This document shows, piece after piece, positions 1-38,900 of a stretch of DNA of 60,000 nt (position 1 is its first letter; every line of letters starts with the position of its first letter). Under the pieces are notes generated by a model. The model was not told the origin of the DNA. It saw only the letters and a program-made list of their open reading frames with translations, and did not search any database. The DNA is taken from the NCBI GenBank assembly GCA_964187785.1, contig OZ076409.1:77068001-77128000 (forward strand), written 5' to 3'. Made by a program: the position numbers and the translations under genes. Source of the DNA: Amphiscolops sp. MND2022 (taxonomy: Eukaryota).

Positions 1-2569
1 GAAACCTCTAAATTCTACGTACCAACAACTCTAGTAGAAGACTTCACCAACCTCAACAAACTCTTGGAAAATTCTTGTCAGTTAGCGCTAAAACAACCTC
101 TAAAAGACAAACAACTTATCGTCATGTCCGATGCAAGCTTCACAGCAGCAGGATATGCCATCATGATAGAAGATGACCCCAACCAGAAATTACAATCCAA
201 ACGTAAAACATACGCACCCATTGCGTTTGGATCAAAAACTTTCAACCCAACACAGACGAAAATGTCGATCTATGCAAAAGAATTTCTTTCCATATATTTT
301 GCACTCGTCGAATTTGGACACCTCATGTGGGGGAGCACCTTCCCAATCATCGTGTTCACTGACAATCGATCAGTAACCCGGTTTTTTCAAACGAAAATGA
401 TTCCTCCAGCGCTTTGGAATGCATGCGATTATGTATTACAATACAATTTTGTAATCGCCCTTGTAGCTGGATCGATGAACACAGCCGCCGATTTTTTATC
501 TAGAACCGAAGTTAACCCAATAGGGAAGCTCGAAATGACAATTCGCAACGATATTCACACAAAAGCAATTGAAGTGAATATACATTCAACTGGAATTGTC
601 GAAGAACAACAAATTTACATCCTTCCTGATGAAAAAATTGATGAAAATCAACTTTGGGAAGAAAAACAAAACACTCGCAATCAAGCACAAAACGAAACTC
701 ACAATGACCCAGAGAACGACGTCTCTGAATTACAGCAATTTCACAAACCTACATCCGGATTGATCTCTTGCTCCTCTGGACACTTCAAGGACAATGCGAG
801 GATACGCCTTGAACAGAACAATGACATAGTCCTTCGAAACCTGAGAGCCAAAATAGAAGGCGAACCGTTTGATGAAAATGAATTAGCTTCCGATTTCAGA
901 TATCAACACTACTTACAAAACATAACACGAATCGAGATTAAACACGAAGTTCTCACACGAAAATACTATACAGATACAGGAATGATCTCGCATTATCAAA
1001 TCCTCTTACCAATCCAACTTCTTGAAGAACTACTTCAAGCCCTGCATGGCCATAACTCAAACCATCCAGGAATCACTAAGATGATTCAAGAAGCACGTCA
1101 AAAATATTACTACCCATGTATGGCTAAATACATCAAAAAATGGGTCAGTAATTGTCAGGTTTGCATTCAAACAAAACGCATTAATAATGACCTCCTTAGA
1201 ACTGAACTCCTAAACTGCCCTGAATGGGTTCTTGGTCCGGAAGACATCCTGCAAATGGATATTTTGCCAAACCTCCCCCCAAGTGGAGGTTATGATCATA
1301 TCATCACAGCAATAGATGTCTTCTCAAGATACTTGTTTGCCTATCCTGTGACCCGCATTACTGCTACGGCAGTATCAAAAGTCATCATGGATATATTATG
1401 CAAACACACTTACCTTCCAACAACTATAATCACGGATCTGGGTACTCAATTCAATGCACAAATAACCCACGAAATTGCTGCAGTACTCGGAATTGAACTC
1501 AAACATGCTACAATGAAACATGCGCAAACAATAGGTCTCCTGGAAAGAACTCATGCCTCAGTTAAAACACACCTAAAAGCCGCGACAGGCAAATTTAGGA
1601 ACAACTGGCATAAATATCTTCCTCTGGCAGTCCTTAATCACAATACTACATACCATGCATCACTCGGGTGTGAACCCTCACGAGTTTTTCATGGACGCAT
1701 ACCACACAATATCCTAGACTATAAACTTGGATATAATCCCAATCCAAGATATCAACCGCAAACCGACATAGCAGACGAAACACAAAAGCGCATGAGAATA
1801 CTTCTAGACCAAACTAAGAAGAACATCATGCAATCTTACCTTAAATACAAAGCCTACTATGACCGCAAAGCAAAGGCAGCACCGCTAGAAACGACGGACT
1901 ATTGTTACATTCTGAACCCAAAAGCAGACACACAAGCGACGAAAATCCCGTTCCGAGAATTTAGATGGTGCGGACCGCAAACATAATCCGCAAAAAATCC
2001 TCCCAAACAATAACTACATAGTTAGAAGACTTGGAACTAACAAAACACAACTCCTTCATAGGATTCGTTTGCGCAAATTTACTCCGCAAGCGCCCTTAGC
2101 GGACATTTTTGTCCGTGAAACTGATTGGCAAAAAGATGATCAAATGCCAATAACAAATGATGACTTATACGCACAATCGTGGAACACGAATTTTGGATCT
2201 AGCCCGTTTAACGATGATCCAGTAGAAAATTCACATAATAATGATGATGCTGAATATACTCCGATTCAAATACCAGACGAAAACCGCCCTCCCTCCCCTA
2301 GTTCTTCAAAAAATAGTGGGGGGAGCCCAGTGGAACAGACCACTGAACCTGAAAAAGAAACGAATAATGAAAATTTACAAGAGACCCATGATGATGAAGT
2401 AGAAAACCCACAAAAAGACAGAAATATAACACCCGAAATTGATGCCCAAAATACCCCAGAAATCCCTGAAAATATCCCATCGCAAGAAGAACCCATAAAT
2501 ACCCGTGGTGAGAAATACAACTTACGTCCTAACCCCAACCCAAATTACTCTGACATATTCAGATATTAA
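1..2569 (+). pseudogene. pol: Gypsy pol: RT/RNase H connection, RNase H, integrase zinc finger, rve core and C-terminal tail; one frameshift near 1975-1990
   Basis: RNase H motifs MSDASF, YAKEF, VFTDNRSV, ADFLSR; HHCC finger H..HPGITKM...C..C; core QMDILP, IDVFSRY, TDLGTQF, LLERTH. After WCGP the homology continues in another frame (QKILPNNNYIVRRLGTNKTQLLHRIRLRKF...YNLRPNP, ORF 2069-2569). A CCGCAAA duplication marks the shift. Confidence 0.93.
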
Positions 2570-2796: not shown

Positions 2797-5700
2797 TTAG
2801 TTTTTCTTGCTTTTCAATGTCTTGCATCGAACATCTGTTGAACCTCCTTCTTGCTCAGCACTGGAGCAACGGCTGAGGGAGACATTAACCCGACTTAGAG
2901 TAGGGTCTGGCGACGGGGTACTGTTGACACTACTATGTCGGCTAACACTAGGAGTGGTGGTGGTAGAGCTAACAGCAGGCTTCTCCAGCCTTAAAACGGC
3001 CTTACGATATCCCGCTTCCAGTTTGCCGACTAGCGCGGATCTTCGGGAACTGCTCCCTTTGGAAAAATTCCAGATGGAAAACTTCTTGTCAGACAGCAAA
3101 TCAGTCCCTCGTCCTAACAACCGGAAGGCACGACTAATAGCCTTTGAATCTTTAAACAGACTAGAGACATGAGGCACAGTTTGGTAGGAAATTTGCAGGC
3201 TAACAACACAAGAATTAAAAGAGCTCTTATCGGATTCAAGTGTAGGTATTGGTACATCGAATACAGGTGGCACTTCCACCGTCGGTGACAAGCACAAACA
3301 AGAATATCTAAACAGTAACAGAAGTTCCGGCCTCGACTGAATTTCGTAATGAGTAGCTATAAAGGATACCCAATCTTCATACTCAGGAATGTTTTCTGTT
3401 CTCATCTTTGAAACGAATGACCGGTACTGACTAATCACTCTCACCTTCTCAGTAGAAGAAACCATCCCAGCAGCCACAAAGTGGGAAGACAGCTTCTCAA
3501 TAGCTGTGGCGTAAACCTCTTCAGGACTCTCAAAGACTACAGGGGAATCAAATGCGGATAAACCCCTGAGCAAATTAGATTTGACGATCTCGTGGGTCAA
3601 TAACTGCTTACAAAAGGATTTGCAGAAGCTAATTGACTGCGCAATAAATTTACTGGGACGGGATAACTTGCTGGTGAGAACCTAATGATGATAATCTTCG
3701 TTGAGCACAAATTCATCGTTGCTTTTAAAAGGCAAACTAGTAGTATCCAATTCCAGTCCGAGATAAGTATCCCAATCTGAGACGCTACCCAGAATACTAT
3801 CAGGCAGGATACTCTGCAGCTGCGAGTATGCAAACACGGCAAATTGGTTGAATAACCTGAAGCCACTGTCTATCTGTTTTTGAGTCTCTGGGAAGGCTGA
3901 ATTATCTGAAACAACATGAAATATTCAAAAAATGAGTGATTAAATACAATAAAATGATCTTCATGATGAGTCAAACCCTACATCAAGAAGAAATAAGTCA
4001 GATCAGACCATGACTCATGACTGAGCTTATAGTTCGTATTATTCATTGTTATTCTCGCATCAAACAATTGTTACTGCTGGTAACACTGAATACAAGTATT
4101 AGACGTCATCCTACGGTTCGAGGTGAAGCGTATATACGTCACTCTGCAGAATTGCTGAATACATTATACGTCATTAGGCGGTTCGAGGTGTGACGACTAT
4201 GCGTCACTATGCGGAATTGCATAGTGGACTATGCGTCATTATGCGGAATTGCAAGGTGGACTATACGTCACTATGCGGAATTGCAAATTGGTCTATACGT
4301 CACTATGCGGAATCGCACGTTAAGCTGATGCGTCACTTAACAATCAATACAGCGATGTCGTTGATGTGGAAAATAATTGAATAATGCGTTGTAGTTTACC
4401 CACAAGTCAGAATAAATTCAACAACAGATTAATAGGGTATAACAATGAAAATACAAAATGTGGTACGATCTAGCTGTGCAAAAACACTAACTACATATTA
4501 AAAAAGGAGTCTTAAAGGGAATTTATCAAGACATTTCGATACACAACCGAAATTATGGTTCCTAACCCGCCACTAGACAAAATAAACAGTAGTCTGAATG
4601 AAAGGAAAATGACTAACAGTGATCAATAACACATCTGATGATGAATAGTCTGGCCAAGAACGCTGAGTCCAATTGGAAACACTCATCAAGTGTGTTGGGC
4701 TAGAAAAACCTCACAGTTATAACACTATCTTTTGGATAACATGACAAACTGATGGACCCTTGTAGTCACAATCTGATAAAATAATTAAACAATAATAACC
4801 TCTTTCATGTGGAAACGGTAGGCGGGTAACCTTCCAATCTGGGTTAGGTGTTCGGTCACTTGTTCCCAATTATTCGACAAGATCTCTATGAGTTTGGAAG
4901 CTTCATCAAGAGTGTATTCCAAAGAAAGGACGCACTGAAAAAGGTGGCAAAGTTTCAACGAAGATCATGTAAAAGTTGACTATAAAAGTGGTATATACTA
5001 CCTTATGCAATAGAGCCAGACTTTGAAGCCAATCCCGATCCAAGGCTGTGCGAAGCTTCATAAGTAGATAATCCAAAATGCTTCTAAAGTCATGCCTCTC
5101 AATAATCTTGACTGTGGGGCTAACCAAACTGCGCTCGAATTCAGTTGGTCCATACGTCTTCACAATTGAAGCAGTTTTGGCACCGGGCAAAGAAGTAATT
5201 AAACATTCATTGAGATTGTCGCTAAATCCTGTGAGTGCAACGCAAGTTGGTACCGTTTCAAATAAACTCAGGAATGAAGCAACGAGATTGAGATTTCCCG
5301 TGGAAGAAGCATTCCTCTTGGGGCACCTCCGATACAGACGCGGTGCAGAACATTCTCAGACCAAAAATAGAGAATGACATATGGTGCTGTAGCTGTATGT
5401 TGAACCGCGAGTGAATAATAACCAGTTGTAGAAATGGCCTTGACACAGTAATCCATTAATTCCCGGAACATGTAGACGAGAATTTCCTGTAAAAGAAATA
5501 TACAATGATACAAAATTCAATTACTTTACTTCAACGGAGACAAAAAATAGTAATTGCAAGATGAAAGGAAAACAATTGTCAAACTTAATAAGGTAAAGAA
5601 CCTACACGAAAGATTACTTACGAAAAGCCGTTGGGGGCTCCAGTTTTGGCCAGAAATCCAGCTGCTGGAGGTCAACCTCACAAGTTCCTCATATACCCCA

Positions 5701-7091
5701 GTCAGTAGAGAGACACTTCCCCCATGTCTTAGGCCAAATTCCAAGATGCTGATTTGGGAGAACAGCTTCTCCGTAGGGCTCGTAGTTGCACTGAAGTCTG
5801 GAATGGACTCTTGCCCAACGAGAGGTCTCAGCGAATCGAGTTGAGGAGGAACTGGGTAGGAATCCCTCGCTTTCTTCTTGGCGTCTTGTAGCGATGTTCC
5901 CAGGATTTCCTTTTCGTCTTTGTCAAACAGAGGCATGCCGGGGACCTCCATTCGGATCCTATGTTCTCGAACTAAATGAGAATCAGTGCGGTAGTGTGAG
6001 ATAAGTTCCATGCTCCCGCGGCTCATGAGTGACAACTCCACACGACATACCCTGCACCACCATTTGTATGGTGACTTGTCTTTATCCAGAGGCCCTGTCG
6101 CTGAAAATTTGAGTACGGGGTGTCGCTTGAACATACTTCCCGTTAGGGAATATTTAGGTTTTCGGCGCTTCCCTCGCACTGTTGGGGGAGATTGTCCTGC
6201 CTCTTGTTGAACTATTCCCGTACTAACACTCGCCACCATGTCTTCCTGACTAGAAGTAGTTATAAGAGTAGTGGGTGTAATGTCATCAACCACTGCAACG
6301 GACATCGGTTGGTCTAGATTACCTTCTTCTCCAGTGATGAAGGACTGTGGGATTTTGCCCAAAAAATTAGCCAAGAAAAGAACCTCCTGTCTGGTGATAC
6401 TGATATTGGATGAGCTGGATCCAACAACTGGCTCGTTTCCTGCGGTAGCTGGTCTGGTAATACTCCCCCATGAATCTTGTTGACTCATTCCTCCTTCCTG
6501 GACAGGATTACTGGGAATCAAAGGATTGGGTAATGAACCATCAGTCCCAGTGATGAACTGACTAAACCTCGGCGAAAGAATACGGGGTGTTCCAGGGGCG
6601 TCTAAATCCGTAAAAAACTCTTGAGCAAAACTATGGCAATCCTCATCCATGGGTTTCGAAGTAGGAGCTATCTTAAGTTGAGTTGTATCAGGCTCAAGTA
6701 ACGAACTTTCCTCATTACGGAGGGTCTCCTCACGAATTATTGGAGGGTCTTCGGTCAACGCTGGCTCACTGGAGTTTTCTTTTGTAGTTCCTTCGTCAAT
6801 TTGCAAGACAGGTGTGCTGGGCGATTCTTGTGGAAGAGTTCGATTTAAAGTTCGTGGTGTGGCAACTTGTAACGCAGTATAATTTTTGTCCGGGGAACTG
6901 ATAGGAGTAGCTTGAGTTGTTCCTTGTTCAACTGAAACAAGCGTTTTAAACAAGCGTTTGAAAATGAAGTAAACTTTGCAAGTGAAACCTGTTTCAATAC
7001 TTCTAGAAACCGGACGCGGGGACCGGAAGTTAAAAAAGGAACGGAAATCACTTAGAAAGCTGAATAGGAAGCGCTTCAAAAGTTTGAACAT
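2797..7091 (-). pseudogene. Five-exon antisense accessory gene of the retrotransposon, about 1090 aa, BED-type zinc finger, possibly hAT-transposase-derived; exons 7091-5622, 5486-5002, 4934-4800, 4699-4618, 3905-2797
   Basis: All four introns are GT-AG and their phases join in frame (0,0,0,1). Exon 1 contains YKWWCRVCRVELSLMSRGSMELISHYRTDSH. There are two lesions: a 1-nt deletion near 5272 and an in-frame TAG at 3684-3682. Confidence 0.75.
4100..4339 (+). repeat. Array 1: 7 full and 1 partial unit of core TATRCGTCAYTATGCGG plus 15-16 bp variable linker
   Basis: Cores start at 4100, 4133, 4165, 4198, 4230, 4262, 4294 and (partial) 4327. The array lies in intron 4 of the antisense gene. Confidence 0.9.
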
Positions 7092-7714
7092 GGCTTTGAA
7101 AATTATCTAAGCCTTTTCAATTTTGCAGGCCTGGCCAGTCTCGCAAAATCACAAATTCAAAACAAATTTATCAATCTAAAACCAAAAAAAAATGAGTTGG
7201 ACTAACGGGAAGAAAGTTCAGGCAGTTCTTCAGGGTTCCAAAAATCATCACGTCGTAATGGATTGTAATTCTTTCGTGATCTGCGTTTTTCGCTCTGATT
7301 GGCTTCAGAATTCGCATCCATGGTGAGGCAGTCGTACCAAAACAATTGAGAACTCCCACGAGAATTATAAAGGCAAAATAAACCGTAATGAGGAGAATAC
7401 TGTAGTAAACAATGATATAATCAATCTGGGAAGAAACCGGGAAGAGAAAGTTACTGAAAAGCTGACTCTGCAAAGTCTAAAATACTTTACTGAAACTGAG
7501 ACTTAAATGTGACTCTTACGATGAAAATGATCAAGCAGTAAGGCGTGGCGTAATATAGCAAAGAAAGGCAAAAAAGCAAATGAGACAGATTTGCGCAAAT
7601 GTGCAAAACAAATACTGTGATCTGATTGGCTAATTAAATGTCAATCACGTCTGCCAGCGTGATTGATTGACTCATTATACAACACCAACGCATAGATGTT
7701 ATTTTGGTTGAAAG

Positions 7715-7860
7715 TATACGGCAGTATGCGGATTGCAGATGCAAAGTATACGGCAGTATGCGGATTGCGAAAGAAGAATATGCGGCAGTATGCGGATCGA
7801 ATGAAGACGTGTATGCGGCAGTATGCGGATTGTGAAAGAAGAGTATGCGGCAATATGCGG
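7715..7860 (+). repeat. Array 2: 5 units of core TATRCGGCARTATGCGG, period 32-33 bp
   Basis: Cores at 7715, 7747, 7779, 7812 and 7844, between the divergently oriented accessory genes. Confidence 0.9.
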
Positions 7861-8697
7861 TTCTCGCTGCACAACTTTAATAGAATGAATTAATGCAGTT
7901 CGTGATTAGAAACGAACAGATGAAGAAGTATTACATAATACCTTGATGAAAATTAAAACATTCTCAAAAATAAACACGTGTGTTATTGCTGATGCTTAGT
8001 ATACATGATACCTAGTCCTATGCAGAATTTAGCTAATTTAGTGGATTCTGAACTAAAGGGGTCTTTTAGAAGTTTAGGGACAAAAACAATTGAAGTCATT
8101 GAACATCATCTGTTAAATCACCAATCCATTCACCCTTTTAAAATGCGGGATTAGATTTATTACATGTTTTTTACTTAAAATTAGTGTTTGAGCAAAATAT
8201 GTAGTTAAACTAAAGGTGGAATATGTTTCATAACTCTTTTTCATCATTTCATAAAATTAGTCATGTAGAATTAAATAAATTTTCCCCCCCCTAAACTTTT
8301 CAATGGAAGCCGCTATGGAAGTATTTGACTACTTTGATGTCCCGCTGAGTTTTGTTTGTATATCATTTAATTGCCTAGAAGTTGATGTATTTTCTAGTGA
8401 TAAATGATGAATCGTTTAAGTGTTAAACAAAACACCTTTTATGGAAATTGTTTACGAATCATCATAAGTGAGTCTCATGACTTGATGCCTAATAAAACCC
8501 TTATAAAGGAAAAGGAGGAATTCAAAAAGCGTGACTCTCAAATTTTCCGCGGGTTTTGTCAAAAGCAAAAGGAGAAAGATCATCAATCACCATATGGTCT
8601 TTAACAATTCAAAACTCAGTCGCTTTTTGAAATAACTGATAATTTGTTACCTGAAGAAACTCACCCATCGATTTCAATCATAACATTTTCTGACAAA

Positions 8698-9726
8698 ATG
8701 GACAAGTTACAATTTAACTTTGAAGAAGACAGCCTTTATTCACCTCTGTCCCCCGATGTGATCGATATATCCAGTGGTTCCGAAGATGCTTTTTCGATCG
8801 CCCCTGGTAACACCCAGCAACTAGAGGAAAAATTCAGAGTAAACCCGGCAGGAAGTAACTTGATGGCTGCATTTGTCGGGTCATCTCTGGCGACCTTGTA
8901 CCCCAACTCAACTGTGCCCCAAGGGAATCATGAAACTACAGTGGCAGGAGGCTCACAAATAGAAAAGAATCTTATGGAACTGATGAGTGACCCCCAGGAT
9001 GAACCCACAGATTCCCCGGCATCATTCGTCGACAGTGAGTTTGAGGAAAGTAATCTGTTTCCCTGGATGGACAACAGAGGCCCGGCCCAGGACACAAATC
9101 ACTATGGTCGGCCATGCGTTAGAGTAATGCCAGTTCTAAGGGAAAACCAGAACGAGAGTGGAGTTCTGCCGACTCCAATGTTCGAACAAACACTCAATGG
9201 AGGCCCCGATCTACCGGTTATGCAGAACACACTAACAAACGACACCATGGAATATGAGCCACATGATGTTGGAGCTCAGTTGCAAATTCCGGTCTCGAGG
9301 AACATGCAGGGGTTCAGCCTGTCCCCAATGTTGTTCCCGATGCAGATGGCGGACACAGCCCAAGAAATGCACCGAACGCCGTTGATTATGCAGCAAACAG
9401 CGCAGATTGGTTTCCCCTTCAATACAGTTCACAGTTCTAATGTGTTACTAATTCCGGCCAGTGAGAGACAGGGCATCCGACTTCTGCCGACAGTTATGCC
9501 GAATGTGGCGGGGTATTGTGAACTATGCGGCAAATGTTTTGACCAAGTTGCATTGGAGACCCTCGGCCAATACTTGGTTGCCACTGAGTATGAAGGTGAG
9601 ACTGTTAAAGAAAGAACAATAAGGTCAAAAGCCTTCATCCATGGGTTCGAGGCAGCCTTGTTCCTTTTTAAAAATGCGGGACTGTCGCATCCCCCAAGAT
9701 GCGATGGTTCCGCAGTGCAACTCTAG
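8698..9726 (+). CDS. Orphan accessory protein (342 aa from first ATG): acidic/proline-rich N-terminus, C-terminal YCELCGKCF (CxxC) followed by a predicted helical segment
   Basis: Intact ORF 8644-9726 with ATG at 8698, clearly richer in GC than its flanks. No family recognised. Confidence 0.6.
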   Translation: MDKLQFNFEEDSLYSPLSPDVIDISSGSEDAFSIAPGNTQQLEEKFRVNPAGSNLMAAFVGSSLATLYPNSTVPQGNHETTVAGGSQIEKNLMELMSDPQDEPTDSPASFVDSEFEESNLFPWMDNRGPAQDTNHYGRPCVRVMPVLRENQNESGVLPTPMFEQTLNGGPDLPVMQNTLTNDTMEYEPHDVGAQLQIPVSRNMQGFSLSPMLFPMQMADTAQEMHRTPLIMQQTAQIGFPFNTVHSSNVLLIPASERQGIRLLPTVMPNVAGYCELCGKCFDQVALETLGQYLVATEYEGETVKERTIRSKAFIHGFEAALFLFKNAGLSHPPRCDGSAVQL

Positions 9727-10015
9727 AAAGGAACAAGTACTGGAACCTTTTCTATAGACTCGCACAAACTCTAATAAACTCATTGTGAACATGTTTTTGT
9801 ACGTTGCTACTTTCAAAAGGTCATGTAGATATCATTTCTATACTTTGCTTACCATGAAGAAACACCCATTATAGTGCTAATGTACCTTGGATTCCTGATT
9901 AAGAGCCCCTATTTTCATCACAAATCTGATATTTCACCGCTTAATCATATGAACTATAAGTTTCTGATGCATCCAAATCAACTCCGTAATAATTTGTGCT
10001 TTAGCATAGTACTAT

Positions 10016-10195
10016 TATGCGGTACTGTGCGGATCGAGGTGTGACGTAAACTTGTCACCATACGTTTTTGGTAATACCATTATGCGGCATTATACGTTTC
10101 AAGGCGTGATGTATATGCGGCACTAGACGTCTTTTGTAGTAACATTATGCGGCATCCTGCGGATCGAATAGGAATGATTATACGTCATTATGCGG
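10016..10195 (+). repeat. Array 3: 6 units (one degenerate) of the same 17-bp core, period 32-33 bp
   Basis: Cores at 10016, 10049 (degenerate), 10081, 10114, 10146 and 10179. Linker ATCGAGGTGTGACGTA resembles the array 1 linker TTCGAGGTGTGACGAC. Confidence 0.85.
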
Positions 10196-10631
10196 TTTTC
10201 GCAGGACTTATTGAACAACACTAGGACGTGCTTCTAATACTATTTAGAAACCATTTTACTTGTATCTTAACGTTGTTTTAAGATATTTCCAGGGTTCTTT
10301 AGTTTCTTCCCATCAGGTACTTCCCATGATGTCATGTAAATTGTGCTATTTTTGTAACATGACCTCATTTGACATAATTCTATTTTTATGATATTTCCAT
10401 ATGATGACTATAGTAAAAATGAGTGTCATGTTTTTAAATATTTTTCGCTTTTGTAATAAATTGGAAGGATTATTGAATATTTGATCCGCATCTTGAGCAG
10501 TTGCTTTTTGAACGATTGTAAACTTCTCAATTCTCGACTACTATAAACTCTACATCTCTGTTTTCTTCCGTGATAATCAAACTAATTCAAATTCTTCCCC
10601 AAAAGCCAAAATACTTTTCACTTGAGACGAA

Positions 10632-11213
10632 ATGGGGAATAGACGTAACAGGAGATCTAGAAGACTAGAAACCCCTTCCCCAGAGCGAAGTATGGAAAGG
10701 GCTCAAGCTGAAACACCAAACACAGGTAATATTACTTTAACTAATAATAATGTAGTTGTTCAAGAAAATTTAGGTGAAAATAGATTTGGAGAACAACTAG
10801 TTGAACCAAGCCAAATCAGCAACGAGATACAAGCTTGGACCGAAATATTTGAGCAGAAGAACAATGATAGAATAGAGAAAATGAGAGAAGAGATGGACAA
10901 TAAATTAGAAGCGATCTTAAGGGAGGTCAAAACTAACAAAAGCGTGTCAACAGTCACAAATCCGAGGTCAGATACTAATGAAACGCAAGATCCTCAACCA
11001 TCGGGATCCAGAACAATAAGGTCTATAGGAGTTCATGCATCCAACAATGAAAACTCAGAAACTGAAGACGAGGATTTTCCTCTTAGAGCCTCGAAAGCAA
11101 AAGACTTAAAACAACCCGCAAAACCTATATATGGATCAGATGTAGATGTTACAATTCATTCGGATGAAGAATCTGATGCGGAGTCGATAGAGGATTATCA
11201 CAGCATGTTTTAA
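10632..11213 (+). CDS. N-terminal part of a gag-like ORF starting inside the LTR, truncated at the LTR end
   Basis: Basic N-terminus (MGNRRNRRSRR) and coiled-coil segment (IEKMREEMDNKLEAILREVK). The ORF runs to ...EDYH at the CA terminus and stops three codons into flanking DNA. Confidence 0.55.
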   Translation: MGNRRNRRSRRLETPSPERSMERAQAETPNTGNITLTNNNVVVQENLGENRFGEQLVEPSQISNEIQAWTEIFEQKNNDRIEKMREEMDNKLEAILREVKTNKSVSTVTNPRSDTNETQDPQPSGSRTIRSIGVHASNNENSETEDEDFPLRASKAKDLKQPAKPIYGSDVDVTIHSDEESDAESIEDYHSMF

Positions 11214-13458: not shown

Positions 13459-14237
13459 TAGGGATGCAGTCCCGGGAATCCCGAAACCCCGGGATCCCGG
13501 ACTAATTGCCCTACCCAATCCCGCCCGGGATTGACTTCTAATCCCGGAAATCCCGGAATTCTCACCGCCCTTTGTTTCAAGCTTCAACTTCAATTATTTC
13601 AGATACAATGGGTGACTTTGACTTTCGAGAATGGTCCGGTAGTTCAATGGTCTGGCGCCACTTCCTTCGCAATACTGATGGCTGTACTGATGCCGAACCA
13701 ATAGTCGACGTGGCAGATCCGACGTTCAAAGAGAAACTACTTGCAGCTACGACCGTCAACGCGGAGTCGGAGTCCGAGTCATCCATGCATTACATCAGCT
13801 CCGGAATTGAGCACTTGATTAAGAAGGAATTTTATTTTTTCTACACTAACAACACCAAAGGAAAGTTTCTAACTCAAGTAGAAAAGTGGCTGGACACCAT
13901 TCGGCCTACATCGGTGGAAGCAGAGCGTTGCTTCAGTGCTGCGGGCTTGTTTGCTTCTAGAGTTAGAAACCGCTTGGGAGACGAAGTTCTGTCGGTTCTG
14001 CAGATCCTACGATTTTACTTCGCGAAGCATGCTAACAAACAGGACGCGCCATAAATTTGATATCCAATTGTTTGCATATGGTAAACAAGCAAATAAAAAA
14101 TCTTCAAATATATTGTTTTTACATTGATAATTCCTGACGCAAAAAATAATCTTTAATCCCGGGATTATCCCGGGATCGGACATTGGCTAATCCCGAATCC
14201 CGGGATTAAGAATAGTGGTCCGGGATTAGCATCCCTA
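13459..14237 (+). mobile_element. Internally deleted hAT transposon (779 bp)
   Basis: TIR TAGGGATGC / GCATCCCTA; perfect 8-bp TSD ACTTGCAA (13451-13458 and 14238-14245); subterminal ATCCCGGGAT repeats. Confidence 0.92.
13572..14054 (+). CDS. Truncated hAT transposase: start of the BED region fused in frame to the C-terminal dimerisation domain
   Basis: SSMVWRHFL (BED start) and IRPTSVEAERCFSAAGLFASRVRNRLGDEVL (hATC motif). The catalytic core is absent. Confidence 0.75.
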   Translation: MFQASTSIISDTMGDFDFREWSGSSMVWRHFLRNTDGCTDAEPIVDVADPTFKEKLLAATTVNAESESESSMHYISSGIEHLIKKEFYFFYTNNTKGKFLTQVEKWLDTIRPTSVEAERCFSAAGLFASRVRNRLGDEVLSVLQILRFYFAKHANKQDAP

Positions 14238-17858: not shown

Positions 17859-19628
17859 CTAGTGATTGGAAGAGTTTTCAACGCGATATAAATTTATGAC
17901 GTCAAGAATGGGCTGTCTGCACAGAGGACACGTGGGATTGATGGCCAAAAGAATAGACGCACAATGGTTGCATGCAACCATATGGCCACATTTGTAGAAC
18001 GCACTGTTGACCACTTGCGTTTCATCCAAACACACGACACAAGTCCCAGCTCTTTCCGACACCATGTGCAAATTACTTGACGATGAAGCGGTCATCAGGC
18101 TTTGGTTGAGAACCATCTGTTGCAGCGTGTTCTCCAGCTGAGTCTGTGCTGTGTTTTGACGCGTCATCATGTTTTGCATGGCTTCCATCATGGTCTCAAG
18201 TCGCAATAGTCTGTCGTCACCCATTTGTGCACCCGTTGCGGGTCTTCTCGGGCGAGTGGGGAGATGGGGAACAGGTACTGCGGCAGGCTCATCAAATGGG
18301 TTGTCAACAGGGTTTTCCAAAAGCCGAGGCAACCCGTACGGGTCTATTCCCACATCTCTGAAGTCATTTCTCACAATCCGAGATCGAGGAAGGCTGTCCA
18401 AAGTCCTTTGCACTTCTCTTCTCGCTTCTTGTGAAAACGTATCGGGGCTGCTCTCCATTCTATGGATCAAATGTTGTTCCAAAATGTCAGCAAATGTGCT
18501 GTTCAAGACTCGAGATACAACTTGATTGCCAACGAGGTTCCCAATTTCCGCGAGATCGTCGAATCTGTCGCTTCGGATAATATTCCTTTGTTGGGTATTG
18601 TGTTCTTGGCGGAAGTTAGCCCATCCAACGGGTGCAGCGGGCTCAGGTGGTGGAGGAGGAAGTTCAGCGGGGACATGTCTTCGTGGATGAGGTACGGCAA
18701 CAGCTAACCGTCTTGCTGCCGGGATCGGAGGGGGCGGAGGTACGGGTATAGGAGGCCCGTTTCTGGGCGAAGAAGTTCCTGAACTCGAACTTGCGTTTCT
18801 TCGGTTCAGTGACGCTCTTTGCCCCCTTGCAACATTCCCGCCCTGGTTGGAGGTTCTGTTATTTCTATTCGACAACAACCGCTCCAAACGCTGCCTGAAC
18901 GAATCAGCAAGCAAGTTTCGGACTTGATGCGACTCTCGTAAAGAAGACAGCTCGTCTCTGGCTGGAGTGGAATCCCGATCTATCGCCGTTGTAATTCTTT
19001 CACTCAACATACTGGATATAAGGAAGGTTCTCTCACGTGTTATATGATTAACACTAGAAAGAGTATCAACCTCGTTTCGCCTTTCAAGTCTCTGCCTTTC
19101 GAAGAAGGAATCCCAAACAGAAACCGGCTCGGATTCTTGGCTCGAGGATCTTTCATCGTTATGGACGGTTGCTTCAATTACATCTTCAGAATTTCCATCA
19201 AGTAGAACTGCATTGTGAGATCTTGGAACAGAATTGATGTTGTTTTCTTGTTCCTCTGCATCAGATGCTTCGATGGAAGACCTCTGAGACGCTGCTCTTG
19301 AGGACTGCAAGATCTCTTCGCTGTATTCACTGACTGCCTCCTCCAATCGTCGTCTTAGGACCCTGGATAGATTGCTCAACGCATCTCGTTGAATGAGATC
19401 GCGGGTTGCAAGAGTATCCAGTTCATTTTGTCTTTCCTCTTTTTGTTGTCGAAAGAATGTCTCCAAGATCGGATTCGTTTTATCCACATGACTGTTTTTA
19501 GAACTGCTGAAGGCATCGACACCCACTTTCTGACAAAACTCTTCACTGACGAAAACGACTTGAGGTCTTGAATAATTTGTCGTCTTTCTGCGTTTCTGAG
19601 GTCTGGATTTTTTACTAATGGGACTCAT
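17859..19628 (-). CDS. Intronless RING-HC finger protein, probable E3 ubiquitin ligase (589 aa)
   Basis: C-terminal CVVCLD...FYKCGHMVACNHCA...CPLCRQPI (IAP/neuralized-type C3HC4), preceded by a coiled segment, a proline-rich linker and repeated EL..L....VS..L...F...LE helices. Confidence 0.88.
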   Translation of the reverse strand: MSPISKKSRPQKRRKTTNYSRPQVVFVSEEFCQKVGVDAFSSSKNSHVDKTNPILETFFRQQKEERQNELDTLATRDLIQRDALSNLSRVLRRRLEEAVSEYSEEILQSSRAASQRSSIEASDAEEQENNINSVPRSHNAVLLDGNSEDVIEATVHNDERSSSQESEPVSVWDSFFERQRLERRNEVDTLSSVNHITRERTFLISSMLSERITTAIDRDSTPARDELSSLRESHQVRNLLADSFRQRLERLLSNRNNRTSNQGGNVARGQRASLNRRNASSSSGTSSPRNGPPIPVPPPPPIPAARRLAVAVPHPRRHVPAELPPPPPEPAAPVGWANFRQEHNTQQRNIIRSDRFDDLAEIGNLVGNQVVSRVLNSTFADILEQHLIHRMESSPDTFSQEARREVQRTLDSLPRSRIVRNDFRDVGIDPYGLPRLLENPVDNPFDEPAAVPVPHLPTRPRRPATGAQMGDDRLLRLETMMEAMQNMMTRQNTAQTQLENTLQQMVLNQSLMTASSSSNLHMVSERAGTCVVCLDETQVVNSAFYKCGHMVACNHCASILLAINPTCPLCRQPILDVINLYRVENSSNH

Positions 19629-21670
19629 CTTCTCAACTTGCTTTGTTCAACAATTTAAAACTCACGACGATCTTGAGTTAACGCTTGTTTTGGTATAAAT
19701 ATGGAGAATCAAAACGATGCGAGTATTTATAAGCTAAAATGTATATTCTTTGAAAAACAGCTCATAATAAATTCAATGAATGATGACATCAGATTTATTT
19801 TTGGTGACATTCTTATTCGTTTTCTATGGTAAACGCAAATGATAATTTCGTCGACTGAATTTTAAACAACAGGAACAACGTGACCAAAAGCGAATATATA
19901 AATGTGGACTGATATAAACATAACGTAATCGAAGGCAAATCGTTAACCAACCATTTGGTTTCAAAACGATCGCAAAATAGTTCAAATTCTTTCAAAGTCA
20001 CAGCGACAGAATCGTCTTCAAATTGTGTTCATGGACGAAATGTTGGCTGTCAAGAGAGACGAAACGACAAGTATAAGAAGGTATTCCGAGTCGGTAACTG
20101 CAGCACGTGATTTTACCAACGGTGTTTTTGGTGCAAAAAGCAAAATTGTTTTAAAAGACAACTAATGCTTGAAATTCACGTCTACATGTTGGAAGCTAGC
20201 AACAGTATATAAAATGCTGATGATAGCAATGCCGAAACCAATCATAAGTTAACATCATTTCAAAAAAAGGTACATTGTCATGGAACTTGATTAAGTCGAG
20301 AAATTCGAAAACATACTTCAATCACAAGCAAATTTCTAATGGATTTAATGACCAAATCTGCTTTTTTAACCTAACCTTAAAATGACCAGGAAAATTTTGG
20401 ATCCATCCAAAAATCGAGTGTTTAAACTTTAAACCGCAATATCTCCAACTATTCAAGTCCGACAAACGATTTATACAGCGTTCGAAAGAACAGCATCAGG
20501 GCTTTCAAATCAATTTTGAAACATGCTGGGGCCGCTTTTACCCAATGTTGATACCAGTTGGATAAAAGGGCCACAAACGAAAACTGGAAGAAGGAAAATC
20601 TGCACTCATTTTTTATCTGCACCCAATTTCTGGATTTTGGAGACATCGCGTCAATATTCCGTGAAAAGGCGCCGAATGCTATGCGATATCGTCTGAAAAT
20701 CTTATTCAAGAGTTTTCTTTACCAAACAATCAGCTGGTGCGTTTAGAAATTGCAGAAACTAAATGTGCCGAATTCGTCACAGTGGCCAAGTTATGGTTAA
20801 ATCGGGGTTTTTACACAGCTGATCGGTAATTCAGCAGCCATTGATGAAGATACAGGTTTTTTATTTAACACATCATCATTAACGAGCATTAAAATTTCCC
20901 ATATTCAACTTTTCTCCATTTCCACATGTTTCCGCAAAGAAACTCCGCGTTTTCACAAAAAAAGGAATTCTTGGATATGACACTCATAATAAACAAATGT
21001 GAAGAATTGTTTCATTCATCTTCAGATATTTGAAGCTGAAAAACATAGGCTGCTTCCGAAGCCAAAACTTAGCGCCTAATCTGATGGGCTTGAAAGTCGA
21101 AAACAAAAATCAACAAAAGTAGAGAAAAAATATCAATTCATTTTGAAGAAATTTTTCCACCCGCGCTAGGTGTAGTTGAAAATAGGTTTCTGATGAACAA
21201 TTGTTACATTTTTTCAAAAACTATTTGGTGAAGGCCAATTTTCTCAAAACTTCCTTACGCATATAAAACGGCAACCCTATATCCTAACACAACAATGCAT
21301 TCCTTTTGCAACAAAGCCACACAACATGATGATCTGAAGAAAAGGACACGCGGCGACAGAGGTTCACTCAACCTGAATGAAAGCTCAGTATCAGACCTTT
21401 CAAACGCGATATAGCTCATTTCTCTGACATGCGTAGTTGTTGAGATATTAACCACTGAAAAGTTTCAGTCAAATTTCTGGAAAATTTGCAAAAATGCCAA
21501 ATTAAGTGAGCTTGTATACATATATAAACTCTTAAATACCCATTTATTGTGGGCTATTGAGAAATAATGAATTGAGCACCTTAATTGATAAAGAACAGGT
21601 TAGTAAGTGCGAAAGTGGAATTCAATCGTTGGTTTACTCTTTCACTATCATGGTTCAAAGTGTTGTTTAA

Positions 21671-32325: not shown

Positions 32326-34530
32326 ATATATATATATATTATTATAGATTATATATATATTATATTATCTATTATATATTATATTATAGACATATATATG
32401 GTCTATTTACACCCCTTGATGCGGGCAATGTTAAGCAAATGATTTATCAAAAACATTTATGGGTGAATAATACCGCTGATTTATATCGTGTTTGTTAGTT
32501 ATTCAAATCTTCCGCAGTTTCCGATGAATTCTACTAGCTTCGCACAGTTTGTCAGGTCATAGAGGTTGAAGTTTTCGGTCGGAAGATCTCTCGGTTCCCA
32601 TATTTTGCAACTGAATAACAAGTGAATTGCAGTTTCTTCGGTTCTTTTACATGAGCATAGAGGACTGGCTGTTAGTCTTCGGTTGTATGCAAAATTTTTC
32701 AATGAGGGGTTGATGTCCAGGAGTACTTCTATGACATGCCTCATGAGCTCTTTGGTTGTGGATATCTTGGTCAAAACGGGGTCGCTTTCTACTCGAGGGA
32801 CAAGATGTTTGAGATTTGTATCGAAGTCCGGATATTGCCATCTATAATTCCATTGCCTAAGAATGTGATTTCTACTCGTTTCTTCATCGTAGCTTAGCTT
32901 GTCGCGTAGGTTTAATGTCTTTCTGCATTAAAATTGTCTCAACGTATTTCTATGGCCCAAAAGAAACGCTAAGTCTGATTCATTTTCTATTATTTGATTT
33001 GTCATATGATCATTGCTTTGTAGAACTTTAGTTAAAAATTTCGATGATATGTTTTGGCACAGTATGTCTATGGGTGCAATACCCAAAAGAACTTCAGCTG
33101 CTGCCGAGTTTGCATTGTATCTGGTTTCCATTATGTTGCGGGTAATCGTATGTTGAAATTTAGTTAATTTAGTAATGTTTTGACTCGCCCATACAGGTGT
33201 GCAGTATAGTAAGGCCGGTAGGATCAATGTTTTGTACATAACTGTAAGGGTGTGTCTCGATAGACCCCATTTGCCTGTGCAATGATATCTCAGTTCTCTC
33301 CACCTGTTCAGGCAACGTGCTGTTGTTGAATCTGTGTGTTGTTTAAATGAACATTCGTTGTCTACGATCAAGCCGAGAATTTTCGTTTGGTATTTGACTT
33401 CACATTTCTCTGTTCCCAGATGAAACTTGTGGTCCCAGATATCCAGTGGGTGAATGGGCATTATCTCGGTTTTCAATCCGTTTATTTGAATTCGCCATGT
33501 GTTGCACCATGTTTTCACCGAATTCAGGTTTTTCTGAATTTTTTCGCAGAGGGAGGCTTGTGTTTCTGCAGACACAAGGATCTGAGAATCGTCCGCATAT
33601 TTGAATTTAGTTCCATCAGTATTCTTCAACATTTCTGCGATGAAAAATATGAAAAGCAATGGTGAGAGTACGCTTCCTTGCGGAACTCCCTGTTTTGGCT
33701 TAATGGGCGAGCTTAACACTCCATCCAGTTTTGTTCGTATCAGTCGGCATTTGAGAAAATTCCGAAGGAGATTAAAGAGTGATCCTCGTATTCCTGCTGT
33801 CCACAGCTTCAGCAGCAAGCCATTGTGCCAAACGCTATCGAAAGCCTTCTCTAAGTCTAGATTTATGAGAGCTGCACATAATTTGCTTTTCTTGAGGAGG
33901 TCGCATTCGAGTTTCAGTCTGAAGAGTGATCTGACGGTGTTCTTCTTTGGGAGAAATCCTTCTTGTTCAAAATCAATAAGTTTTTCAGAGAGCATGTAGC
34001 GCATTAGACGTCGGTTGAGTATTCTTTCGAAGACTTTTCCTATATGGCTGCTGATTGAAATTGGCCTGTAGGCAGATGGGTTGCTGTAGTCAGCTTTCAT
34101 GGGTTTCTTAATGAATAAAACGCGAGTGTCTGTCCAAGGCCAGGCTCCAGATCTGAGGCAAGAGTTGAAGAGGTTGATTAGACAGGTTCTGAAATTATTT
34201 CCAGACATGATGACCATCTTCGGGTGGATCTTGTCATCGTCGCTGTTACATTTCAGATTTCGTAGTTTTTCAATGATCTCGTCTAGTTCATGTCTTTCAA
34301 CAGCTTCATTGAACCATAGGCTGGAGTACGAATTACAGTCTGTAAATTCTAAAAAATCAATATATCGCATTTGATCATCCACAAGGTTTTCAAACTCTCC
34401 GTCAAATTCTTCTTCTTTCAGATGGCTACCGCTAAAAAACGTATTGAGCAGTAATTTTGCTTTATCTGGCTCATCGAAACACAGTCCGGATTGTGATCTC
34501 AAAGGGGCTACCATCTGGTCTTTTTTTGAT
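32326..34530 (-). mobile_element. 5'-truncated LINE with RT ORF (32499-34514, one in-frame stop at 32928-32930), C-terminal CCHC finger and AT-rich tail
   Basis: AYRPISISS, QEGF, LDLEKAFDSVWH, GVPQGSVLSPLLF, KYADD, ILGLIVD; the ORF continues in the same frame to SPLCSCKRTEETAIHLLFSC; (TA)n tract at 32322-32400. Confidence 0.9.
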
Positions 34531-34749
34531 ATCCTTGTGTGATAATCCTTGTGTCATACGATTTATCAGATATCAAGGATCTTCGTCATCAATCAAGTGC
34601 CATGTGTATCATCATGTTGAGGGAAGACACACACCCGTGGTCTGCAACGAAAGTAGGGAACCCCATACCAGCCACTATACCAGTAGACCAGTAACAAACC
34701 AGAGCCACATATGCGGTAAAGGAGTCGGCTTAGGTTTTTTTTCTTCTGA

Positions 34750-35988
34750 CTCGCCCCAATCCCAGTCATAACAGTTTATTGGAATTGCACACATAGGACG
34801 ATACTATGGTGTAGAAAATGACTAAAATATTCCTTCGAATCGTATGAACAGTTTTAGCAAAAGTCAAAAAAAGTCGAAAAATGGCTGTTTTTTGGCCATT
34901 TTTGGGTTAATTTAGGCTATGTTTCTCACATCCCAGCAATACGAATTTGTTGAAATTACACACAGAGGACCATAACATGATGTAGAATGACTGTACAAAT
35001 TCCATTCGAATCGTATGAACAGTTTTTGAGATAATAGAAAAAACCAGAGCCGCATATGCGGTAAAGGAATCGGCTTAAGTCTTTTTCCTTCTGACTCGCT
35101 TTCGTTCGAATCGTATGAACAGTTTGTGAGAAAATCGAAAAATGACTTTTTTTGGCCATTTTTGGGCTAATTTTGGCTATGTTTCTCACATCCCAGCCAT
35201 AGGATTTTGATGCCATTGCACATATAGGACTCTAATATGGTGTAGAATAACTGTAGAAAATTTCGTTCGAATCGTATGGACAGTTTTTGAGAAAATCGAA
35301 AAAAGTCGAAAAATGACTATTTTTGGGCCATTTTTGGGTTAAATTTGGATATGTTTCTCCCATACCAGCCATACGATTTTTATGCCATTGCACATATAGG
35401 ACTCTAATATGATGTAGAATATCTGTAGAAAATTTCGTTCGAATCGTATGGACAGTTTTTGAGAAAATCGAAAAAAGTCGAAAATGGCTGTTTTTTGGCC
35501 ATTTTTGGGCTAATTTTGACTAAGTTTCTCACATCCCAGCCATACGATTTTGATGCCTTTGCACACGCAGGGGCCCCTTTGGGTGTAGAATGACTGTGCA
35601 AAATTTCGTGAAAATCGTATGGACAGTTTTTGAGATATTTGAAATTTTCTTGAAAAGGTCGGGAGAAAAAAAAACAGCACGATTGCATAAGTAGTCGAAA
35701 ATTTTTTCCGACTCCTAAAAATCGAAAAATGAGTGTTTTTCGGCCAATTTTGGGCTAACTTTGGCTGTTTCTCACATCCCAGCCATACGATTTTGATGCC
35801 ATTGCACATATAGGACTCTAATATCGTGAAGAATAGCTGTAGAAAATCTCGTTCAAATCGGATGGACAGTTTTTGAGAAAATCGAAAAAAATGAAAAATC
35901 ACTGTTTTTTGGTCATTTTTGGGCTAATTTTGGCTGTTCCTCACATCCCAGCCATACGATTTTGTTGAAATTACACACAAAGGACCAT
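34750..35988. repeat. Satellite-like tandem repeat, unit about 165 bp (also 37630-38545, 40190-40500, 41250-41816, 45360-45670)
   Basis: Recurrent TTTTTGGCCATTTTTGGGCTAATTTTGGCTATGTTTCTCACATCCCAGCCATACGATTTTGATGCC...TTCGAATCGTATGGACAGTTTTTGAGAAAATCG. Confidence 0.85.
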
Positions 35989-38900
35989 TTATTCCCCAAA
36001 CCTTCTGTCGAAAAACAAAAAAAACGCTTGAATATCCCGTTTTATTACTCCTCTCATTCAATTCCATTATTTAAACAAAAGAAACTGCCCAAAGGAAATG
36101 TGTTAGAAACCCCTCGGCTAGAAATCTTTTCATGCTTGAGCGGGCTAAGGAGGATTTTTCGATGTCGGTTGAGCTGGACAAAATCTGTTTTTTCTCTGGT
36201 TCCTTCACTCAAAACACCTCTGATGCTTTCAGCCTCCTAAATTCGCTGAAAATTCAATGTCTCCCCTCCTCAATGAAATACAATTCGACTCTTCTCACAA
36301 ATGACTTAGACATTGCAAATAGTTTTAGTGAAAACTTCTCTTCGTCATTCAATAGCCAAACTTATCCTTCTTCAGCCCCTCTTTGTCCTTGCGGACATAT
36401 TTGACTCTTGAGGACATATTCTTCATATTTTTCTTGAGGACATATTTGACTTTATGACTATGAAATCAATCTATAGGAAAACCTTGGCAATGAAATCAGC
36501 TTTAACAGTTCTCTTCGATAACCTCCCCCCTCTTCTAATCAAATTATGTCCCGAGTTGTTTGCGCATCTTTTGTTTATTTTGTTCTCTGCTATCATCCAC
36601 ACTTTAGTTTACCCTGATATTTGGTAAACTGCATTTATAAGACCCCCGCATAAATCAGATAGCAAAACAGATATTACCAACTATAGGCCCATTAGCCTAT
36701 TACACAAAATTTCCCTCATTTTCGAAAAGAACATGTTTGACTTCTTGTTTAACAAAATAAAGCATAGTATTACTCCTCGTCAACATGGTTTTCAATCAAG
36801 GAAAAGTGCTGTGCTTCAATTAATTGATTTCCTAGAGACTGCTCGGCTGAAAACTCTCTTAACCGTTACACAGTATACTTGGATTACGCCAAGGCTTTTG
36901 ATAAAGTTCCTTTTGATGTTATATTTCGCAAACTTCGTTTATTTGGGTTAGATGAAAACTTCCTGCATCTTATCAATTCTTTTTCGGCTCAACATTCACT
37001 TATGAAGAGCAACTTGCGAAACATCAGTGTCTTCCAATTAGTCTCCATCTCAAAATGTGGACACTATTTTTACTGCTGGATATACTTGACAGCAAATATC
37101 TGTTTGATCCATTAAATTACATCCAGTTTCAGAATCTGAAGACTACTTCCAGGAGAAAAACAACAAACCCCCTCAAAGTAATTAGAAATTCACACCTTCC
37201 AGAAAGTTCTTTTTTCGCGAGAGCCGTAAACTTTTTCAACTACCTCTACAGGCATGGCATCATAGATTTCAATGATCCAACAAAGAAATCCAATAGAAAG
37301 AAGTTTCTGCTTGCAAAAGATTTTAACATGGATTTAAGATGCAGTTATTATATTTGCTGCTACTGTAGCTCCTGCAGACCACTGTTAAGTCTTTCCTAAC
37401 TAATCTCAGTGTCAATGTTCTTTCCTTGGTGCAAGCCCGTGTCGGGTTGTGCCATTAAAGTTCATCGCACGACCTTTGGGTTGTGGGTTGGGACCTGGAT
37501 ATTTTTATTTTAACGTTGTGCTTGCTTTTGTGTTTTTTAAAATTCATATAAAACATTAACTTATAAAAAAAATGTACTTCATTACTATTCTTGGCTCTGA
37601 AAAGAGAATAAAGTCTTATCTCTCTCTCTCTCATGATGTAGAATGACTGTACAAATTTTCGTTCGAATCGTATGAACAGTTTGTGAGAAAATCGAAAAAT
37701 GACTTTTTTTGGCCATTTTTGGGCTAATTTTGGCTATGTTTCTCACATCCCAGCCATAGGATTTTGATGCCATTGCACATATAGGACTCTAATATGGTGT
37801 AGAATAACTGTAGAAAATTTCGTTCGAATCGTATGGACAGTTTTTGAGAAAATCGAAAAAAGTCGAAAAATGACTATTTTTGGGCCATTTTTGGGTTAAA
37901 TTTGGATATGTTTCTCCCATACCAGCCATACGATTTTTATGCCATTGCACATATAGGACTCTAATATGATGTAGAATATCTGTAGAAAATTTCGTTCGAA
38001 TCGTATGGACAGTTTTTGAGAAAATCGAAAAAAGTCGAAAATGGCTGTTTTTTGGCCATTTTTGGGCTAATTTTGACTATGTTTCTCACATCCCAGCCAT
38101 ACGATTTTGATGCCTTTGCACACGCAGGGGCCCCTTTGGGTGTAGAATGACTGTGCAAAATTTCGTGAAAATCGTATGGACAGTTTTTGAGATATTTGAA
38201 ATTTTCTTGAAAAGGTCGGGAGAAAAAAAAACAGCACGATTGCATAAGTAGTCGAAAATTTTTTCCGACTCCTAAAAATCGAAAAATGAGTGTTTTTCGG
38301 CCAATTTTGGGCTAACTTTGGCTGTTTCTCACATCCCAGCCATACGATTTTGATGCCATTGCACATATAGGACTCTAATATCGTGAAGAATAGCTGTAGA
38401 AAATCTCGTTCAAATCGGATGGACAGTTTTTGAGAAAATCGAAAAAAATGAAAAATCACTGTTTTTTGGTCATTTTTGGGCTAATTTTGGCTGTTTCTCA
38501 CATCCCAGCCATACGATTTTGTTGAAATTACACACAAAGGACCATTTATTCCCCAAACCTTCTGTCGAAAAACAAAAAAAACGCTTGAATATCCCGTTTT
38601 ATTACTCCTCTCATTCAATTCCATTATTTAAACAAAAGAAACTGCCCAAAGGAAATGTGTTAGAAACCCCTCGGCTAGAAATCTTTTCATGCTTGAGCGG
38701 GCTAAGGAGGATTTTTCGATGTCGGTTGAGCTGGACAAAATCTGTTTTTTCTCTGGTTCCTTCACTCAAAACACCTCTGATGCTTTCAGCCTCCTAAATT
38801 CGCTGAAAATTCAATGTCTCCCCTCCTCAATGAAATACAATTCGACTCTTCTCACAAATGACTTAGACATTGCAAATAGTTTTAGTGAAAACTTCTCTTC

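Follow-up and report, generated by a model that had tools for sequence, protein, structure and literature searches.

Antisense additional open reading frames (ORFs) between pol and the 3′ long terminal repeat (LTR) are known from LTR retrotransposons of plants and fungi. In the portions of the reports available here, this aORF-3R group includes gene23 of maize Grande, rice RIRE2, TRP28/Transposase_28 (PF04195) of Retand, and fungal Boty (PMC7264820, PMC11963269). The same portions leave the origin of these genes open, and describe an origin from nested transposable elements (TEs) as unsupported for want of similarity to other TEs. An own promoter is shown for Grande gene23 (PMC7264820, available text). 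In bdelloid rotifers, retroelements carry extra ORFs of GDSL and DEDDy type that are shared between diverse elements (PMC5408684, available text). The present work concerns an antisense gene, called the cargo below, in a window of 60,000 nucleotides from Amphiscolops sp. MND2022 (assembly GCA_964187785.1, contig OZ076409.1, positions 77,068,001 to 77,128,000, forward strand; host genome 1.07 Gb). The gene belongs to a 16.1-kb Ty3/Gypsy element, in which it occupies the interval from pol to the 3′ LTR. It likely descends from a hAT-type transposase and lacks the catalytic residues, it is split by introns, and a relative of it resides in a DNA transposon.

The cargo resembles the aORF-3R genes, as far as their accessible descriptions go, in its position and orientation, in its presence in most copies (here 49 of 50 elements, under selection), in an upstream promoter of its own (shown for Grande, predicted here), in the tandem repeats of the pol-LTR region, and in the nuclear or DNA-binding regulatory role proposed. 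In contrast to them, it has five GT-AG introns, the intron type that the host genome uses, its origin is traceable to a DNA transposase, and it is also found in a DNA transposon. The cargo exon alignments and their relatives gave no match to PF04195, which sets the gene apart from TRP28 of Retand. Like the bdelloid extra ORFs, as the available text describes them, it is an accessory gene of enzymatic origin placed after pol and shared between unrelated element types; theirs are host-type enzymes circulating among retroelements, whereas the cargo is antisense, spliced, derived from a transposase, and crosses from class I to class II. The literature searched, mostly without subscription papers, Repbase Reports or supplements, held no transposase-derived spliced antisense gene in an LTR element and no transfer to a CACTA element. 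The cargo family would offer a traceable case of a nested-transposon origin for antisense extra genes, whose origin and function are otherwise open questions.

An earlier note on this DNA, made from the letters alone, had proposed five exons and about 1090 codons with a start at 7091. Only 2 of 15 copies have an ATG at the corresponding column, and the segment 7091-6932 has insertions or deletions (indels) in all three frames. The ATG at 7321 is present in 15 of 15 copies. The exon that it opens is 112-118 nt long, ends in phase 1 in all 15, is open in 14, and is followed by a GT donor, with an AG acceptor at 6931. Because this conserved ATG, the first exon and the 6931 acceptor replace the 7091 start, the gene is corrected to six coding exons (five introns) and 1,078 codons, as follows.

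7207..7321, minus strand: coding exon 1, 115 nt, with the conserved ATG and a basic patch; absent from the earlier model
5622..6931, minus strand: coding exon 2, a low-complexity N-terminal region, then a C2H2 (BED-like) finger near 6065-5985, then a conserved helical stretch
5002..5486, minus strand: coding exon 3, which aligns with the RNase H-like core of the donor transposases, has lost the catalytic aspartate motifs and retains the RW tryptophan; the window copy has a one-base frame break near 5292
4800..4934, minus strand: coding exon 4, 135 nt
4618..4699, minus strand: coding exon 5, 82 nt
2797..3905, minus strand: coding exon 6, a helical C-terminal part that aligns with the insertion domain and the C-terminal domain of the transposases; no ExGFS; in-frame stop at 3684-3682 in the window copy

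The four junctions that had been proposed (5622/5486, 5002/4934, 4800/4699 and 4618/3905) are sound: all are GT-AG and their phases match. In 20 diverged copies, picked across the 60-77% identity range of the last exon, the splice sites fall at the same codon positions, 157 of 160 dinucleotides are canonical, and all exons stand in order, antisense, behind pol (20/20). Intron lengths vary across these copies, from 62 to 199 nt for three introns and from 445 to 696 nt for the fourth. All of 15 copies have the W-C-x2-C...H-x5-H finger, and no inverted repeat flanks the gene, in agreement with the absence of terminal inverted repeats (TIRs) noted before. The window copy is broken twice, as had been seen; the stop at 3684-3682 was correctly placed, and the frame break aligns near 5292, not at about 5272. 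Intact relatives had been expected, and two of seven sibling copies are indeed open from end to end in the six-exon reading. The premise that introns survive reverse transcription when they are antisense to the genomic RNA follows from established retrotransposon biology and fits the intron conservation.

Within the first intron, a coding middle exon was considered and rejected, as its length varies modulo 3 and stops occur in the frame read in 14 of 15 copies. Two conserved boxes at 7135-7019 (minus strand), one AG-ending (15/15) and one GT-starting (14/15), bracket a non-coding stretch of about 120 nt and possibly mark a poison or untranslated exon; the gaps that flank it, about 60-86 nt each, have the size of introns. 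A methionine about 343 codons ahead of the next donor recurs in most copies. At one locus (L100), most of the cargo gene is tandemly duplicated within one element.

The cargo very probably descends from a transposase, to judge by profile comparison. A hAT origin beyond the finger had been put forward tentatively, and it gains from hhalign, in which a nine-row cargo alignment matches 17 intact DDE transposases with probabilities of 95.5% in local mode (563 columns) and 98.4% in global mode, against 0.5% for reversed and Ac-type controls. The last exon alone reaches 97.0% against these donor-type proteins. Its profile matches 29 donors of a set of 31 at E < 1e-3, the finger region matches 2/31 and the core exon 0/31. 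Identity between the cargo and intact donors is low, at about 16%. In this genome, the donor-type proteins are fragments and the family is mostly short or broken pieces; the intact transposases, of 640-845 residues, come from metagenomes. In a tree, the cargo copies form one clade against the donors (support 100/100); L125 was left out for lack of an exon model, L128 is not in it, and the exon models of L122 and L129 are rough.

The attribution to a hAT-type transposase is supported beyond the finger, and the donor is not of the Ac/Hermes type recognised by Pfam; it belongs to a different clade, one that has an ExGFS motif. The genome's own hATs of Ac/Hermes type were tried as donor and rejected, with hhalign at 0.1-2% and no last-exon match under E 0.1 (1,143 segments, 30 loci). 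The donors would be placed in hAT by their motifs and by weak Pfam matches: D..D..E, CxxH and RW are present, Dimer_Tnp_hAT matches weakly in 1 of 16, and similarity to Ac-type hATs is found at E 9e-4. Their motifs comprise DE[ST] (12/16), DG, RW and ExGFS (16/16) and CxLH (15/16); TIRs or target-site duplications of the donors were not found in 18 contigs. The finger spacing occurs in 15/15 cargo copies, 3/3 intronless relatives, 12/16 donors and 0/6 Ac-type proteins, and Pfam zf-BED gives weak matches in 5/16 donors and in no cargo copy. The available text of PMC9004415 supplies hAT group names and no means of assigning the donor.

The catalytic residues, for which a search had been recommended, are missing from the cargo. 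The first column holds no D in 24 rows (Q in 9, E in 11), the region of the second Asp is mostly G in a mapping that is uncertain at this residue, and the Glu column has P in 29 of 47 rows and E in one. ExGFS is found in 0/47 rows, compared with 16/16 donors, and CxxH is not recognisable. The RW tryptophan, by contrast, survives in 23 of 24 rows. A nuclease or strand-transfer activity altered through shifted acidic residues could be read from the Glu at the first column (11/24), from an acidic residue (E or D) placed two positions ahead of the last catalytic column (13/47), and from the uncertainty over where the second Asp lies. Across the family, however, no such acid is conserved; the window clade has Gln at the first column, CxxH and ExGFS are lost as stated, and the gene lacks flanking TIRs, so that this activity is considered very improbable.

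Structure prediction bears on the last exon. A first model from 19 rows had a mean predicted local distance difference test score (pLDDT) of 47.6 and no meaningful structural match; with 47 rows, the pLDDT rose to 83.8. In the fold comparison with Hermes that had been suggested, the latter model has Hermes (PDB 8edg) as its top match among 48,161 chains, with 177 residues aligned to Hermes 368-609. This match is weak (Z 5.2, root-mean-square deviation 7.0) and Foldseek returned none. The cargo shares with hAT transposases (Hermes 8edg and the ExGFS clade) the finger spacing, the RW tryptophan and the domain order over about 560-650 aligned columns, and it may share the C-terminal fold, to which the weak Hermes match points. 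It differs from them in lacking the DDE triad, CxxH and TIRs, in a long low-complexity N-terminal extension, and in moving as the cargo of other elements. No cargo exon or relative matched any Pfam family above its cut-off, including PF04195 (Transposase_28), and PF14291 gave no match anywhere, controls included. In word-based searches of longer proteins, the last exon had no match and the core exon matched members of its own family only; Atlas gave no usable match, and PDB sequence searches nothing relevant. A profile search of 1.84 billion representatives returned 299 relatives, and those among the 150 matches listed were all exon-sized.

The cargo is a regular part of its carrier. Of elements picked by their integrase alone, 49 of 50 carry the last exon behind pol; the picks are the top 30 (29 carry it) and 20 taken at fixed steps among the 150 matches listed (20/20). 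DNA matches to the last exon number 41, with 25 at 96-100% identity and 15 at 66-73%. In the protein search, 150 of 6,200 candidates were scored, all 59-100% identical, and 130 of these 150 have no stop. Of 20 very distant cargo matches, 17 lie antisense behind a pol that is 46-69% identical to that of the window. In 15 of the 20 diverged copies (five were left out for indels), the median proportion of nonsynonymous differences (pN) is 0.07-0.29, against 0.77-0.87 for synonymous ones (pS). The ratio of the corresponding substitution rates (dN/dS) is 0.04-0.13 from the unsaturated pairs (4-45 of about 104), and pN/pS in young subfamilies is 0.26-0.42. The opposite strand has 5-17 stops per copy. 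These substitution patterns indicate purifying selection on the antisense gene.

A decaying nested hAT insertion, or an antisense RNA that alone matters, could be argued from the two breaks in the window copy, from five broken siblings of seven, and from one copy that lost the 5′ part of the gene by recombination between motif arrays. Against this stand pN values far below pS, splice phases conserved at saturated synonymous divergence, the 130 of 150 scored last-exon matches without a stop, and the presence of the exon in 49 of 50 elements. This explanation is given hardly any credence, and neutral decay in particular is refuted by the selection, the splice conservation and the prevalence of the cargo.

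The capture of a gene, as the earlier note had put it, is right in that the cargo is a fixed antisense part of an LTR retrotransposon, and needs correction in that it is not a one-off event. In 7 of 66 pairs of elements, fourfold-site divergence is 0.02-0.06 in pol compared with 0.60-0.81 in the cargo, and the distances in pol and cargo are uncorrelated (rho 0.15, p 0.22). From these comparisons, the cargo is a conserved cassette, swapped between near-identical pol backbones, and it has also reached a DNA transposon.

An intronless lineage bears on the history of the introns. Its members (L242-L245) are long open frames that a transposase fragment, used as query, matched at E values of about 1e-4 to 8e-4. 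They belong to a Gypsy lineage, run antisense to the Gypsy integrase, and have no introns over about 790-840 codons. A profile of the spliced cargo, built from 11 natural copies read across the four core introns (10 without a stop), matches an intronless relative as one domain over 646 positions at E 2e-30, through all four junctions. The intronless relatives have dN/dS of 0.08-0.09. The four core intron positions are shared with a clade that is only 15-20% identical in the core exon. L123/L126 retain three of the four core introns and are the sister group of the intronless lineage (support 97/99). Intron loss in the intronless lineage is the simpler reading, and it would imply that a spliced RNA once existed.

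The remaining 3 of the 20 distant cargo matches had no pol nearby and sit in a DNA transposon with 37-bp TIRs starting with CCC. Five full copies were found, mostly 98-99% alike, four of 35.8-37.6 kb and one extended to 51 kb by a nested LTR element, besides one derivative of 8.9 kb. Target duplications are 2 bp in five of the six copies and 3 bp in one. The transposase is of Tnp2 type, with matches to DUF1258 (E 3e-9) and to Transposase_21 (E 0.002, below its cut-off), and the element bears two weakly scoring SET-like ORFs. By its ends and transposase matches, this second carrier is of the CACTA/EnSpm type. Animal CACTA/EnSpm elements such as SmTRC1 are known, with insect examples of 5-9 kb (PMC1636069, available text). 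The CCC termini, the 2-bp duplications in 5/6 and the weak Transposase_21 match agree with what that text gives for them, whereas a size of about 36 kb, SET-like ORFs and a Gypsy-derived dead transposase do not.

The CACTA-borne cargo nests among LTR-borne copies, closest to L128 (support 100 in a quick tree), and directly behind it lie 362 nt that are 73% identical to the tail of L128 pol, with the same final codons. Because the CACTA cargo nests among LTR-borne ones beside a pol-tail remnant, the transfer most likely went from the LTR element to the DNA transposon. A comparison of the two CACTA subfamilies gives a pN of 0.20 and a pS of 0.85, and part of this divergence may predate the capture. 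Loci L133-L113-L134-L178-L179 and four more copies of the CACTA-type element contain long palindromes as well as tandem repeats of 88 bp, which are similar to the Gypsy pol tail. The LTR element nested in one CACTA-type copy belongs to the window's own clade.

Sequence features outside the exons suggest how the gene may be expressed and what its product may bind.

7542..7629, minus strand: conserved non-coding boxes upstream of the ATG, putative antisense promoter
7725..7860, plus strand: eight TATGCGG motifs upstream of the putative promoter
4208..4310, plus strand: four TATGCGG motifs at 32-nt spacing, inside the last intron

The promoter region keeps a CCAAT box in 14 of 15 copies, the palindromic TTTGCGCAAA in 13 and a GC box in 13 (counts by the first 7 letters of each box). 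Since these boxes are kept upstream of the ATG in 13-14 of 15 copies, an own promoter is suggested. Within its element part, the window has 18 TATGCGG motifs, compared with 2.7 expected for the whole window; the motif clusters in the LTR (five in each), upstream of the antisense promoter and in the last intron. Close relatives have 5-17 motifs per 7 kb (14/14), and 15 distant ones have 0-1. A sibling (L033/L034) lacks the part corresponding to window 4311-7715 through recombination between two TATGCGG arrays, and its LTRs are still 99% alike.

On balance, the six-exon antisense gene probably, though by a modest measure, encodes a DNA-binding accessory protein that helps to keep its own element transcribed. 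A hAT element would have inserted antisense behind pol of an ancestral Gypsy element, and its ends and chemistry would then have been lost. The gene would be transcribed from its own promoter near 7540-7860 and spliced. The genomic RNA of the opposite strand would copy the introns unspliced, and it is because that RNA is the other strand that they would be copied intact. The protein, which retains the DNA-binding finger and the scaffold without the chemistry, would enter the nucleus and bind short repeated motifs in its own element, the TATGCGG arrays in the LTR, the antisense promoter and the last intron being candidates. Once bound, it would act on transcription or chromatin, most likely favouring transcription. 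Such a regulatory function has no need for reverse transcription, and a CACTA-type DNA transposon could therefore capture and keep the gene. Since a relative is also present in this unrelated giant DNA transposon, the cargo is likely a portable DNA-binding helper. The candidate motif TATGCGG makes the function directly testable.

A role in the integration step is the first competitor, and an unlikely one. The dead transposase would bind element ends or target DNA and would chaperone, import or target the integration complex. Scaffolds of hAT transposases are established to bind ends and target DNA, there are five TATGCGG motifs per LTR, and 23/24 rows retain the RW tryptophan; nuclear import of the pre-integration complex is also raised for antisense ORFs in the available text of PMC7264820. 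Cassettes move freely between near-identical pol genes, which speaks against a protein closely matched to a single integrase. A DNA transposon that has no integrase retains a relative, and motif arrays are found at a distance from the ends as well. Any role tied to integrase or capsid is likewise disfavoured by this free exchange, together with the persistence of the gene in an element that does not use reverse transcription.

Another competitor is that the protein limits its own element, or blocks active hATs through their ends or by poisoned oligomers. Dead transposases can act as dominant negatives, and the genome holds mostly short or broken donor-type pieces, as this explanation would have it. 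The carriers, however, are young and numerous (LTRs 99% alike; 25 copies at 96-100%), and mixed oligomers with intact donors are unlikely because the cargo is only about 16% identical to them. Repression or competition is considered a rather improbable role.

Several points weigh against an accessory protein of hAT descent that favours transcription. DNA binding and expression of the cargo are both deduced from its sequence. The core exon alone scores 1.5% against donors in addition to matching 0/31, and the mapping of the two aspartates consequently rests on the full-length alignment; the RNase H-like core is assigned by alignment, and the folded part is the last exon. A distant cargo clade has Glu at the first catalytic position (11/24 rows), where the window clade has Gln. 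The Hermes match lies within 1 Z of short unrelated matches, in addition to its deviation of 7.0 and the lack of a Foldseek match. The TATGCGG arrays could be sites for a host factor, and the 15 distant LTR elements showed no conspicuous array of this kind. The selection signal in the CACTA copies could stem from the time before capture, in LTR elements, and the pairwise distances among L113, L117 and the LTR-borne L128 are about equal.

A more specific form of the accessory-protein reading can be offered only tentatively. VANC anti-silencing proteins of the Arabidopsis VANDAL Mutator elements are element-encoded and bind short repeated motifs in their own family. Their likeness to the cargo concerns a possible mode of action only; no homology is claimed, and the anti-silencing role of the cargo is a proposed one. 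The cargo might then be a portable anti-silencing module that came from a hAT, was tamed by a Gypsy clade into a spliced antisense gene, was swapped between retrotransposons together with its own binding-site arrays, and was passed to a giant CACTA element. If true, three kinds of mobile element have been served by one protein family. In broader terms, the cargo would be a transposase domesticated by another mobile element and not by the host, with introns that were kept and then lost in one lineage, and a gene that crosses element classes.

The carrier has two LTRs of 1,520 bp that are 99.1% identical, with TG...CA termini and a 5-bp target duplication. Its gene order is that of Ty3/Gypsy elements, with gag followed by protease, reverse transcriptase (RT), RNase H and integrase; the protease was identified from its motif only. 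Domain matches are zf-CCHC, a weak Ty3_capsid, RVT_1, RT_RNaseH, Integrase_H2C2 and rve. Its parts, in window coordinates, are as follows.

-4937..-3418: 5′ LTR, upstream of the window, as are gag and RT
1..2569, plus strand: 3′ part of Gypsy pol (RNase H, integrase), with Integrase_H2C2, rve and RT_RNaseH matches and a frame break near 1977 in the window copy
8605..9726, plus strand: second extra ORF, 373 codons from stop to stop, no Pfam family
9670-9682: purine-rich tract directly before the 3′ LTR
9683..11202, plus strand: 3′ LTR, 1,520 bp, containing five TATGCGG motifs and the start of the gag frame

The second extra ORF lies on the sense strand before the 3′ LTR and has a CxxC motif; of 20 related loci, 19 have a match to its N-terminal part. 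It is apparently swapped separately, because its identity (42-95%) does not track that of the antisense gene. The gag frame starts inside the LTR (10632-11202, plus strand), about 190 codons before the LTR end.

Elsewhere in the window, a remnant at 13542-14054 (plus strand) has a weak match to the hAT dimerisation domain (E 0.018) and is, by motif, unrelated to the cargo clade. A single-exon ORF of 595 codons at 17859-19646 (minus strand) ends in a C-terminal RING finger (PF13920, E 6e-12) and is probably a host gene. ORFs at 32928-34553 (minus strand) and 42638-43711 (plus strand) resemble the RT and endonuclease of long interspersed nuclear elements, and they lie amid 172-bp tandem repeats and duplicated blocks (35100-45950).

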